Source: an uncultured Erysipelothrix sp. (lineage in GTDB: Bacteria; Bacillota_I; Bacilli_A; Erysipelotrichales; Erysipelotrichaceae). Taken from it: a DNA stretch of 64,000 nt. The notes under the pieces are model-generated. The model had not been told where the DNA came from and searched no databases. It saw only the letters and a program-made list of their open reading frames with translations. The position numbers and the translations under genes are program-made. The DNA is taken from contig CAYZMP010000003.1 in assembly GCA_964479585.1 (NCBI GenBank), forward strand, positions 5,045 to 69,044, in the 5' to 3' direction. Position 1 is the stretch's first letter. Each line of letters opens with the position of its first letter. This document shows, in pieces, positions 39,523-42,756 of this stretch.

Positions 39523-40467
39523 CTATTTTATCTTATTTACAAACTTTTCACTATTTATAAATGCTTCTATATTTTCCAAAATCAAGTTTTCTAGTCGCTC
39601 CATGTGTTGATCTGATGCAAAGGAGTTATGTGGTGAAATGAAAATATTTGGAGTATCCCAAAGAGGATTATTTTTAGCTAGTGGTTCTTCATTAACAACA
39701 TCTAAATAAAATGACAAATTAGAAATTTCTAACTTCATATACTCTACTAAATCTTTTTCATTGATTAAAGTCCCTCTACCCACATTAATTACAACTGCAT
39801 TATCATTCAATCTTTTTAACATATCTTTGTTTACATAATCAATTGTTTCTTTATTTGAAGGTAATCCAAAAATTAAAATATCATAATTGCCAACTTCTTC
39901 TTTTGAATTTTTTAAAGAAAAACACTTTGAAAATCCAGATACTTTTCTACCATTACTATTGACACCATGAATAATACATCCAAAGGGAGTCAATCTTCTC
40001 ACAATTTCTTGGCCAATACTTCCAGTTCCAAACAACAACACTTTTTTATTTGAAAGCTCTTGAATACTATAATTTGGTTTCCATTTTTTAGTTTTTGCAT
40101 TTTCAAAAAAGTATGGCAATTTTTTATAATGTGCGATTATTATGCCTATGACCCACTCAGATATAGGTATACTATACACACCCTTAGCATTTAATACTAT
40201 TACATTATTTGAATGTAAAGAATCATAATCTAAAAAATCATAGCCAGAGCTAATCGTTTGAATGATTTTGAGCTTTGGCCACTTTGCCATATCAAGATCT
40301 TTTAGTTCTGTAGCTCCTACAATAAAATCAAAAGAGTGATATTCTTTACTTTTTTGAAACGCTGAAAATTCGTTTGCTTTAATTGTAGTTATGTTAATGT
40401 TTAACTCTCTTAGTTTATCTGTATTTTTATCCTTCAATAAATTTTCACGTATTAGTAATATGTTCAT
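39523..40467 (-). CDS. D-isomer-specific 2-hydroxyacid dehydrogenase family, NAD-binding
   Basis: GTGSIGQEI Rossmann motif, ..NVGRG.LI.. and SPHNS catalytic-His region. Confidence 0.85.
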   Translation of the reverse strand: MNILLIRENLLKDKNTDKLRELNINITTIKANEFSAFQKSKEYHSFDFIVGATELKDLDMAKWPKLKIIQTISSGYDFLDYDSLHSNNVIVLNAKGVYSIPISEWVIGIIIAHYKKLPYFFENAKTKKWKPNYSIQELSNKKVLLFGTGSIGQEIVRRLTPFGCIIHGVNSNGRKVSGFSKCFSLKNSKEEVGNYDILIFGLPSNKETIDYVNKDMLKRLNDNAVVINVGRGTLINEKDLVEYMKLEISNLSFYLDVVNEEPLAKNNPLWDTPNIFISPHNSFASDQHMERLENLILENIEAFINSEKFVNKIK

Positions 40468-40479
40468 GTTTTCACCTAA

Positions 40480-40700
40480 AGGAATTATATCATGAATTAG
40501 TTTAAAGGGGGTTCAAACCTCGTGCTAAATTATTAAAGCCTAGCATGGCTTATCCTATAACAGTGCATATAGCATTATAGGCTAGTCCGAAGACTATAGA
40601 TGGTTATTTAAAATATTCAAAGCACCTACAATGTCTCTATGATTTGAATATCCACAACTGCATATGTATTTTCTTTTTTGGCTATTATTTATTCTAAAGC
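40480..40700 (-). ncRNA. candidate TnpB guide RNA (omega/right-end RNA) scaffold overlapping the tnpB 3' end; ends are approximate
   Basis: On the minus strand, three consecutive hairpins start at the tnpB stop codon. They are TAGTC-TTCG-GACTA (40583-40596), CCTATAA-14 nt-TTATAGG (40554-40581) and AAGCC-ATGCTA-GGCTT (40536-40551). AGCACGAGGTTTGAACCCCC (40507-40526) follows. The 126-bp non-coding gap is far more structured than its neighbours. Confidence 0.4.
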
Positions 40701-41622
40701 AATTAGGACATTTCTTTGATGTGTTTTTTGGATTTACCCAAAGAATAATAATTCCGTTTCTTTTAGCTTTATAGACGATATAATTCTGTAATCTTCTATA
40801 TGACCAAGAGCTAACTCCATTTAATTTTGCATTATTTTTCTGCAAATTGTTTAAATTTTCTAATTTTATGTATTTTACTTTCTCTTGATTTGCAAAATCA
40901 ATAATTTGCTTACTAATCTTGTGATCAATATCTTTAAGCTTATTACTCCATTTCTTCTTGTGAATCACTTTGCAATCTAGATTTTTCAGTGCCTCTTTAT
41001 TGTTTTTTGCTTGTTTTGTGTGTATATATCTCTTTTTCCTTCCATTTCCAAAAAATCGAATTTTCCCAGTGCTAGTTGCTACAACAGCAGGAATTTTTAT
41101 ACCTAAATCTATTGCCATCATATTTCCGTTGTCGTTTTTCGCTTGAGGAATATCATAAGTTATGTTTCCAATCCACTTGTTGTTTCGTATGAAGATTTTG
41201 AATGAAGTTATTTTTACTTTTTGATTATTTATTTGTGACCAAATATATTCATTTATACGTGTTTCTAACAATGTTTCTTCTTTCATAAATGTTTGTATTA
41301 ATATTTTGTCAGAGTTTAAAAATTGACAGTTAATGTTTGTCCACTTGCAATAATCGATCTTCACCTCATTTCTTGTAAAATTATTGCTAACTATTTGCAA
41401 ATATAATTCCTTCGCTACTTTAATTACTTCAATCTTTGAATCCCATGGTATAGTATTATTTATTTCTTTGAATCTAATATCATAAACCATTTCGGCTTGC
41501 AAAAATTTCGATATCACCCTGTTTACTTCAATATCAAAATTATCTATCAATTTGATTAAGTAGTATTGTTGGTTGCTATTTGGATACAATCTAAAGTTAT
41601 GGCTTAAATACATTTTCATCAC
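40594..41622 (-). CDS. tnpB: TnpB (IS605 OrfB-family RNA-guided DNA endonuclease), compact ~340 aa
   Basis: N-terminus (M)YLSHNFRLYPNSNQ. RuvC-I AIDLGIK, RuvC-II YIKLENL, zinc ribbon CPNC-x12-CSC and RuvC-III NHRDIVGALNILN. The likely true start is the ATG at 41613, 5 nt after AGGTGA. Confidence 0.85.
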   Translation of the reverse strand: MMKMYLSHNFRLYPNSNQQYYLIKLIDNFDIEVNRVISKFLQAEMVYDIRFKEINNTIPWDSKIEVIKVAKELYLQIVSNNFTRNEVKIDYCKWTNINCQFLNSDKILIQTFMKEETLLETRINEYIWSQINNQKVKITSFKIFIRNNKWIGNITYDIPQAKNDNGNMMAIDLGIKIPAVVATSTGKIRFFGNGRKKRYIHTKQAKNNKEALKNLDCKVIHKKKWSNKLKDIDHKISKQIIDFANQEKVKYIKLENLNNLQKNNAKLNGVSSWSYRRLQNYIVYKAKRNGIIILWVNPKNTSKKCPNCFRINNSQKRKYICSCGYSNHRDIVGALNILNNHL

Positions 41623-41643
41623 CTATAACATAATTGTATAAAA

Positions 41644-41675
41644 ACAAAAAAAGTCCTAATAAATGGACTTTATTT
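41644..41675 (-). terminator. rho-independent terminator of the six-tRNA operon (may double as the IS left-end hairpin)
   Basis: Minus strand AAAGTCC-ATTTATTA-GGACTTT followed by T7, 5-30 nt after tRNA-Gly. Confidence 0.65.
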
Positions 41676-41679
41676 TTAA

Positions 41680-41753
<74 letters not shown>

Positions 41754-41755
41754 CG

Positions 41756-42327: not shown

Positions 42328-42756
42328 ATGCTGAAAGTTTTTAACACAAATTCATTAGGACAAAACGAGAGATTTTTAAAAGCAGTGCTTTTTGGAATTC
42401 CATTATCACTTGTTTTATCAATCTTATTTGCAATTATTCAAAGATTATTAGGAATTAGATTTTCTTTATTATATTTGGGATTAGGATATTCAATTGCATA
42501 TGTATTAAGAAAATATGGAAGAGGTGTTCAACCAAAATTCGCCTTTTTAGGTTTAGCTCTAACTTTTTCTGCAATGCTACTAGGTGATATATTTACACTA
42601 ACTGGATTTATGATTTTGAGTAATCCATCAATATTTGTTGATGCACTAATAATTACACTCAACTCATGGATAAGTATCAATATCAACAATCTATTAACAT
42701 TACTATTTAGAGTGTATTCATTATATATTGCATACACTAGCTCAAGAATAATATAG
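42328..42756 (+). CDS. membrane protein, unknown function
   Basis: 142 aa with four hydrophobic helices. AGGAGG RBS. Sits 7 nt upstream of alr. Confidence 0.5.
   Translation: MLKVFNTNSLGQNERFLKAVLFGIPLSLVLSILFAIIQRLLGIRFSLLYLGLGYSIAYVLRKYGRGVQPKFAFLGLALTFSAMLLGDIFTLTGFMILSNPSIFVDALIITLNSWISININNLLTLLFRVYSLYIAYTSSRII

Follow-up and report, generated by a model that had tools for sequence, protein, structure and literature searches.

A compact TnpB gene held at one chromosomal site in Erysipelotrichaceae, with a candidate fixed guide RNA

We examined a gene for a compact TnpB protein, and the RNA that starts at its 3′ end, in a 64,000-nucleotide stretch of DNA from an uncultured Erysipelothrix sp. 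(contig CAYZMP010000003.1 of GenBank assembly GCA_964479585.1; the whole stretch is called the window below). Our reading, held with somewhat better than even confidence, is that the locus is a domesticated and immobile TnpB with its guide RNA rather than a stranded insertion sequence (IS), and the evidence suggests that the host uses the TnpB against a fixed target. The first 12 nt of the proposed guide, GAGGUUUGAACC, would be a fixed guide held constant by selection. Domesticated TnpBs are so far established in two forms, as CRISPR effectors (Cas12) and as repressors that have lost nuclease activity (TldR). Comparison across loci strongly supports a TnpB that the host has retained, with its nuclease intact and its guide fixed. 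The candidate is well delimited, consisting of a 339-amino-acid (aa) enzyme with an intact active site, a 75-nt scaffold and a guide that stays constant at family-level distances. A real fixed guide would show that a transposon nuclease can be kept active by bacteria for a set task, on the chromosome or against invaders. What the guide targets can be tested directly, as its sequence, its register and its natural variants are in hand, and the small size of the protein keeps its practical interest as a miniature nuclease.

Gene context and descent of tnpB

Homologues were gathered by a protein search, a scan of one genome per species and look-ups of the exact protein; a scan of metagenomes gave mostly distant mobile relatives, and the close orthologues came from the exact-protein look-ups. 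The gene order at orthologous loci was alanine racemase, a 142-aa membrane protein, a tRNA cluster ending in Lys-Gly, a terminator hairpin, tnpB, 2-hydroxyacid dehydrogenase (2-HADH), aldo-keto reductase and MutY. We found tnpB at this same site in every fetched Erysipelothrix or Erysipelotrichaceae relative above ~32% aa identity (20 orthologous loci, 32–95%), one subclade (L006–L010) having an additional gene ahead of the dehydrogenase. The identical protein was present on eight contigs, all eight of them carrying it at this locus. The pairwise identities of TnpB correlated with those of 2-HADH (r = 0.90 over 171 locus pairs), with means of 45.9% and 44.9%, respectively. The ratio of nonsynonymous to synonymous substitution rates (dN/dS) of tnpB was 0.09 in an unsaturated pair of loci (L072 and L056) and 0.23 in the closest pair (the window and L172), and the neighbouring genes showed similar or higher values. 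In a neighbour-joining tree, the fixed single-locus clades stood apart from the mobile relatives. The constant site, the co-divergence with the neighbouring gene and the low dN/dS show that tnpB is inherited vertically across Erysipelotrichaceae at one site, under purifying selection and at a rate about that of its neighbours. We conclude from these comparisons that the window gene goes back to a single ancient insertion and that the host has retained it as a gene of its own ever since.

The initial annotation, made from the window alone, had described the gene as an orphan tnpB lacking a tnpA. The lack of tnpA was confirmed over the full 64 kb, where tblastn with two TnpA proteins as queries for a Y1 (HUH) transposase gave nothing better than E = 0.9. 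The search for further copies that it had proposed extended to the window, in which no second tnpB was found and the sequence AGCACGAGGTTTGAACCCCC (40507–40526) occurs only once. There was no CRISPR array within 10 kb on either side and no cas1 or cas2 nearby; the neighbours of tnpB are housekeeping genes, namely tRNAs and metabolic genes. The terminator hairpin of the tRNA operon, located by a terminator scan at 41650–41671 on the minus strand, lies between tRNA-Gly (41681–41754) and tnpB, and this layout is kept in the orthologous loci. Since just ~35 nt separate this terminator from the tnpB ATG, there is no space for a transposon left end. Measured against the features of an IS200/IS605 mobile element, the locus thus fails throughout, having no TnpA, no ends, a constant context and a constant guide. 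The sense of "orphan" as a stranded IS copy does not survive the combination of a syntenic site across Erysipelotrichaceae, co-divergence with neighbours, purifying selection and the missing left-end space.

The nearest relatives in Bacillales and Clostridia (~32% aa identity) are ordinary IS608-like elements with tnpA directly upstream. Among these mobile relatives, one genome holds two copies whose sequences part upstream of TTAC, the transposon-associated motif (TAM), and copies diverge downstream of the right end ...GGGAGUCUCAA. The IS608-like TnpBs of the IS200/IS605 group (reference ISDra2, PDB 8H1J and 8EXA) belong to the same family as the window gene and share its fold, RuvC triad and zinc ribbon. 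Their RNA likewise starts at the 3′ end of tnpB, and its stem-2 loop, GCUAUAUGCACUG, and arrangement of stem 3 and pseudoknot are homologous to those described below. They differ in having tnpA, ends (TAM TTAC, right end ...TCAA), multiple copies, varied contexts and copy-specific guides, all of which the window gene lacks. The window scaffold is also without the ~120-nt insertion of the IS608-like scaffolds, and the bases that follow the pseudoknot are conserved in the window lineage.

Two further observations concern the gene itself. Between the window and L172, the synonymous divergence (dS) of tnpB was 0.10, about half that of the adjacent genes (0.20–0.24), with few substitutions on which to base the estimate; the low value might reflect constraint at the RNA level or recombination. 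In an uncultured Erysipelotrichaceae metagenome-assembled genome (MAG), the syntenic tnpB (L005:283–1296) has an in-frame TGA shortly before the RuvC-II motif, which reflects either decay of the gene or a mistake in the assembly.

The guide-RNA scaffold and the start of the guide

To assess the structure of the RNA, we aligned 13 orthologous RNAs from the stop codon onward and counted the pairs of four helices against shuffled and slid controls. Standard pairs occupied 97.5% of the cells, and 9 of the 22 pairs changed on both sides, a number reached by none of 500 shuffles; in the slid controls, 28–42% of the cells were paired. The single-sequence fold of the 3′ flank was only weakly better than that of shuffles (z = −1.5). 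All RNA features lie on the minus strand. Stem 1 (UAGUC-UUCG-GACUA, 40583–40596) overlaps the stop codon and was paired in 98.5% of the cells, two of its five pairs changing on both sides (UA/AU and AU/GC). Stem 2 (40554–40581) has 7 bp, all cells paired and one covarying pair (UA/CG); its 14-nt loop, UGCUAUAUGCACUG, was 98.9% conserved and is present also in the distant mobile relatives. Stem 3 (AAGCC-AUGCUA-GGCUU, 40536–40551) changed on both sides at three of its five pairs, has equivalents in all other clades and provides in its loop the 5′ strand of a pseudoknot. The 3′ strand of the latter, UAGCA at 40523–40527, pairs with UGCUA at 40541–40545; it was paired in 100% of the cells, and covariation was seen at three of its five pairs, one position showing four different pair types. 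Its variants among the orthologues were GCUA/UAGC, GCUG/CAGC, GUCA/UGAC, GACA/UGUC and GGCA/UGCC, and in the more distant clades GAGG/CCUC, GGUG/CACC and GGACG/CGUCC. The covariation indicates that the three stems and the pseudoknot are maintained by compensatory changes. Of the structured 3′ flank that the initial annotation had drawn, the hairpin with the UUCG loop over the stop codon and the two further hairpins (40554–40581 and 40536–40551) were all recovered, and their conservation with homologous tnpB genes, on which it had staked the claim, follows from the same 13 RNAs and 500 shuffles; by this evidence the three hairpins are real and have a function, and a pseudoknot comes in addition to them. 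The visible scaffold comes to 75 nt. No Rfam family matched the region, even at E = 10.

The pseudoknot also locates the guide. In the omega RNA of ISDra2, the pseudoknot occupies nt −6 to −2, with the single nt −1 ahead of the guide, and a pseudoknot preceding the guide is stated to be common to all Cas12 guide RNAs (PMC10097598). The mobile relatives show the same arrangement, their pseudoknot 3′ strand being UCUCA (or UGUCA, with a compensating change in the loop) and a single A standing between it and the boundary of the right end. In the window, nt −1 is the C at 40522. Because the pseudoknot sits one nt before the guide in the solved TnpB and Cas12 RNAs and in the mobile relatives, the guide by analogy most likely starts at 40521 and reads GAGGUUUGAACCCCCU. 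It would consist of the conserved TAM-proximal 12 nt GAGGUUUGAACC (40510–40521), placed by adjacency to the pseudoknot, and a variable distal part, CCCU, at nt 13–16 (40506–40509), a total of 16 nt being taken from ISDra2. The initial annotation had counted AGCACGAGGUUUGAACCCCC as scaffold and placed the guide at 40470–40505; the covarying pseudoknot at 40523–40527 moves the likely start to 40521, and constructs built on the former boundary would be wrong.

Conservation follows the proposed boundary. The mean pairwise identity among the 13 orthologues, each from a different species-level group, was 0.925 in the 12-mer, 0.42 in the next 8 nt and 0.58 in the linker before the pseudoknot. The core G-N-G-N-N-U-Y-G-A-A-Y recurs in the same register (pseudoknot, 1 nt, 7 nt, GAA) in clades A–D, where clade A contains the window gene and the others are three further single-locus clades of Erysipelotrichales. 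These three keep the 12-mer block with different downstream genes (pepT, Rrf2/cysK and dut), so the block goes with tnpB as a unit rather than with the promoter of the dehydrogenase gene. A stable hairpin or terminator follows in clades B–D and in the L006 subclade, starting 13–23 nt (median 20) past the proposed guide start, a spacing that suits a guide of 16–20 nt; a guide placed after the block would have just 1–11 nt. A terminator scan of the window found none at the 3′ end of the proposed guide. In L005, the locus with the premature stop in tnpB, an otherwise invariant A of the 12-mer is mutated to G (GAGGTTTGAGCC), and the pseudoknot still pairs.

An ordinary TnpB guide is an arbitrary flank. 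Were the role of TnpB one of retention, guide and target would be the same flank and could drift together; the constancy of the 12-mer thus calls for a constraint of another origin, the simplest being conservation of the target. One competitor to domestication on this point is an ordinary non-autonomous tnpB-only element of the IS1341 type, with its scaffold running through ...GGUUUGAACCCCC, the flank at 40470–40505 as its guide and selfish persistence, for example by cutting the empty allele. TnpB-only copies are common, the protein and scaffold of the window gene are canonical and its relatives are true IS608-like elements, all of which speaks for such an element. It would not explain a site constant across a bacterial family with co-divergence of the neighbours, nor the strong purifying selection, and it has no room for a left end. 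The pseudoknot, moreover, lies 12 nt upstream of the boundary that it assumes, and as under retention or homing the guide is the target DNA, nothing would keep 12 nt constant while the adjoining bases drift. We give this explanation little credence.

Several points weigh against a domesticated TnpB with a fixed guide. The argument for vertical descent is built on MAG contigs and identity correlations and not on a reconciled phylogeny. A second site for the flank guide or the conserved guide was sought in the 64-kb window within two mismatches, and only chance-level matches were found; searches of 26 loci with exact 9-mers and with 12-mers allowing two mismatches gave no consistent site and no TAM-flanked target, and matches of at least 9 nt to the conserved guide were absent from 25 of the 26 loci and from the window. 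In the L025 subclade, the conserved block is 1 nt longer, and in L011 an otherwise invariant G of the block is C. Finally, the 12-mer could be an added scaffold segment instead of a guide, though no conserved partner was found for it.

This last possibility can be stated as an explanation of its own, in which the 12-mer is an extra scaffold or regulatory element, such as a protein-binding or RNA-processing site, and the protein has no DNA-target function or takes its real guide from the variable flank. The failure to find a target fits it, and a near-palindrome within the 12-mer, GGUUUGAACC, could be a structural motif; in the window, pairing is also possible with the downstream UUUAAACU. That pairing is not conserved in the orthologues, however, and the 3′ end of the open reading frame (ORF), where we looked for a conserved pairing partner of the 12-mer, held none that covaries. 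A 12-nt insertion between pseudoknot and guide would break the geometry of all TnpB and Cas12 RNAs, and the other clades would be left with only those 1–11 nt ahead of their stable hairpin. We regard the explanation as decidedly improbable.

Two specific roles for the 12-mer were tried and rejected. A long-range helix between it and the codons of CGYxNHRD has an 8-bp match in the window and is not conserved. Its TTGAAC is unsuited as a −35 box, the spacing to the −10 box being 21–23 nt, and the motif is found also in clades where a terminator follows.

Two observations were made on the guide region in single strains. At 40498–40519 of the window, GGUUUGAA can pair with UUUAAACU over a CCCCC loop to form a hairpin within the proposed guide, a feature of the window strain that is absent from the orthologues. 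One Longicatena MAG (CGS1Y2-bin51) carries two paralogous fixed tnpB loci, L046 of clade B and L063 of clade C, and their guide cores differ (ACGGTTCGAACC and GGGATTTGAACT, respectively).

The protein and its relation to known systems

The tnpB coding sequence (CDS) spans 40594–41613 on the minus strand, giving 339 aa from the ATG at 41613 to the stop TAG at 40594–40596. An alternative GTG start at 41622, from the ORF list, would give 342 aa (40594–41622, minus strand); the ATG is the likely start because all 33 of the 33 aligned homologues begin with MYL, matching it. The sequence motifs named in the initial annotation (FRLYPN, AIDLG, KLENL, CPNC-x12-CSC and HRDIVGALNI) were each found in place, the first within NFRLYPN near the N terminus, and the triad that it had called apparently intact is invariant in an alignment of 34 sequences and aligns with the catalytic motifs of Cas12f. 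The RuvC-I residue D169 (in MAIDLG, codon 41107–41109) aligns with the Cas12f catalytic Asp motif, E252 of RuvC-II (KLENL, codon 40858–40860) likewise aligns to Cas12f, and D327 of RuvC-III (HRDIVGALNI, codon 40633–40635) aligns with the Cas12f motif NADxNAA. The zinc ribbon, or TNB, CPNC-x12-CSC (40654–40710) contributes C302-x2-C305 and C318-x-C320, all four Cys being invariant in the same 34 sequences.

Profile searches placed the protein in the family, with one exception. It scored 119.9 bits with NCBIfam NF040570 (guided_TnpB, "RNA-guided endonuclease TnpB family"; cutoff 100) and 68 bits with Pfam PF07282 (Cas12f1-like_TNB; residues 275–337, E = 8e-19, cutoff 26.3), whereas PF01385 (OrfB_IS605), with 28.6 bits, fell slightly below its cutoff of 30.5. 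The best sequence matches among solved structures were Cas12f proteins (E = 7e-17) and TnpB. An AlphaFold (AF2) model built from 34 sequences had a mean predicted local distance difference test score of 85.9 and a predicted template modelling score of 0.70. A Foldseek search with this model matched AsCas12f (8j1j, TM-score 0.73), ISFba1 TnpB (8iaz, E = 1e-17) and ISDra2 TnpB (8h1j, E = 1.5e-14), and we predict for the 339-aa protein a WED-REC-RuvC-TNB arrangement with a TnpB/Cas12f-like fold. By these alignments the window gene is a compact TnpB with a conserved RuvC D-E-D triad and Cys4 zinc ribbon.

By sequence and structure, the best match of the window protein is Cas12f (AsCas12f 8J1J and 7WJU, OsCas12f 9NZQ, CnCas12f1 8HR5). 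Cas12f is 80–160 aa longer, and the window locus has neither a CRISPR array nor cas1 and cas2; its guide RNA, unlike that of Cas12f, is one RNA continuous with the 3′ end of the gene. The TldR repressors of Wiegand et al. (PMC10705468), the nearest known parallel, are likewise TnpB derivatives and resemble the locus in lacking transposon ends, in their fixed context and in having a guide RNA next to the gene, with a guide that is kept from species to species. They differ in having lost the RuvC triad and often also the C-terminal zinc-finger/RuvC part, whereas the window gene keeps D169, E252, D327 and the four Cys. TldR targets sit beside a TAM in a promoter close by; neither the window nor the 26 loci yielded a target of this kind. 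The authors of that study named nuclease-active TnpBs in non-mobile contexts as still unexplored (PMC10705468). In the literature that we found, a review of 2026 among it, the domesticated forms named are Cas12, TranC and TldR alone, and the "fixed guide TnpB" of 10.1101/2025.08.27.672191 refers to Cas12k ancestry and engineered constructs and not to this kind of locus. An incomplete search brought up no account of this Erysipelotrichaceae locus or of any TnpB whose fixed guide resembles a tRNA T arm, so that an earlier description is possible.

Possible targets and mode of action

The domesticated TnpB could work as follows. The gene and its RNA would be transcribed by read-through of the weak tRNA-operon terminator, the RNA running on towards the dehydrogenase gene; we infer read-through because a scan between 41623 and 41650 found no promoter-like site for tnpB. 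The protein would bind and trim its RNA, and the resulting ribonucleoprotein would recognise a TAM-flanked conserved DNA site elsewhere by means of the fixed 12-nt seed and cut or occupy it. In the ISDra2 structure, the effective guide length is 12 nt, with nt 13–16 disordered (PMC10097598). The intact RuvC might serve target cleavage, the processing of its own RNA or both; the invariant triad argues that catalysis matters, on DNA or on its own RNA, and by analogy repression without cleavage is possible.

The one lead on a target comes from the form of the conserved block, G-R/N-G-N-N-U-Y-G-A-A-Y-C. Its complement, G53-T54-T55-C56-R57-A58-N-N-C61-N-N, is the T-loop consensus of tRNA with the closing G53:C61 pair, and it is invariant and variable where tRNAs are, the conserved guide being antisense to tRNA positions 52–63 (the T loop and 3′ T stem). 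In the best ungapped register, guide nt 1 lay opposite tRNA position 63 for every tRNA in every locus, with 8–11 of 12 positions matching and no perfect match. We estimate post hoc that a conserved 12-mer would fit the seven specified T-loop positions, over a few registers and either strand, by chance about 1 time in 1000. An exact target in a neighbouring tRNA was rejected as a general rule: L063 matches tRNA-Ser(GCU) at 14 of 16 positions, but its sister locus L014 reaches 8 of 12. We treat the resemblance to the T arm, seen in the conserved letters, as a lead and not a finding.

A fuller account can be built on this lead. Erysipelotrichales would have a lineage of host-domesticated, nuclease-competent TnpBs, with at least four single-locus clades, two of which can be present in one genome, whose guide, antisense to T-arm positions 52–63, acts on tRNA genes or tRNA-like DNA (for example, tRNA genes or attachment sites of invading elements) or regulates or maintains its own tRNA operon. 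We consider this account rather unlikely as a whole; if true, a T-arm-directed TnpB would join Cas12 and TldR as a third product of domestication. Type V-K CRISPR-associated transposons offer a parallel, as their homing CRISPR RNAs (crRNAs) target tRNA genes and their effector, Cas12k, is nuclease-dead. The likeness to the homing crRNAs extends to the TnpB-family effector, the fixed tRNA-related guide and the tRNA-gene neighbours and is a resemblance only; unlike the Cas12k systems, the window has no Tn7-like genes, and the T-arm match points into the tRNA and not downstream.

A different mode of action would be RNA-guided repression in the manner of TldR, with the protein binding without cutting at the 2-HADH promoter or a tRNA gene, a short effective guide and RuvC serving only to process its own RNA. 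Some TldRs use short guides of 9–11 nt, those associated with oppF directing them at the neighbouring promoter (PMC10705468), and short guides switch the ISDge10 TnpB from cleavage to repression (PMC13507860); the 2-HADH promoter directly adjoins the RNA in clade A. Against such a repressor, the D/E/D triad that TldRs have lost is invariant in the 34 sequences, and the downstream gene varies among the clades while the guide core is constant. In none of the loci did we find a promoter-proximal match to the conserved guide, and the bases 5′ of the guide at its own locus are the variable pseudoknot strand and not a constant TAM. We judge this mode improbable and retain the domesticated, nuclease-intact TnpB as our reading.

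The promoter in question is marked by the extended −10 box TGATATAAT of the 2-HADH gene (40484–40492; CDS 39523–40467, both on the minus strand), which falls outside the proposed guide, on its downstream side. In the orthologous loci, a TGnTATAAT box is found 14–20 nt after the conserved 12-mer. The initial annotation had the guide coincide with this promoter; the extended −10 is indeed present, but the region is probably not the guide, which most likely starts at 40521, and judging from these positions the overlap is probably incidental.

The remaining observations concern the surroundings of the gene. The 142-aa predicted membrane protein (42328–42756 of the window, plus strand) has no Pfam match and stands beside alanine racemase in all syntenic loci. 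In Longicatena caecimuris, a 157-aa ORF for an IS200-type Y1 transposase (L049:1906–2379; the same in L123) separates the tRNA cluster from the clade-B tnpB. The sister loci L046, L084 and L085 do not have this ORF, which is apparently an independent insertion rather than a partner of tnpB. In human-gut contigs, a gene for a large serine recombinase (L014:704–2413) lies upstream of the clade-C tnpB, and the clade-C locus may be on or beside an integrated element. In a clade-B genome, a tmRNA gene (L018:1776–2152) is located directly upstream of the same tRNA cluster.

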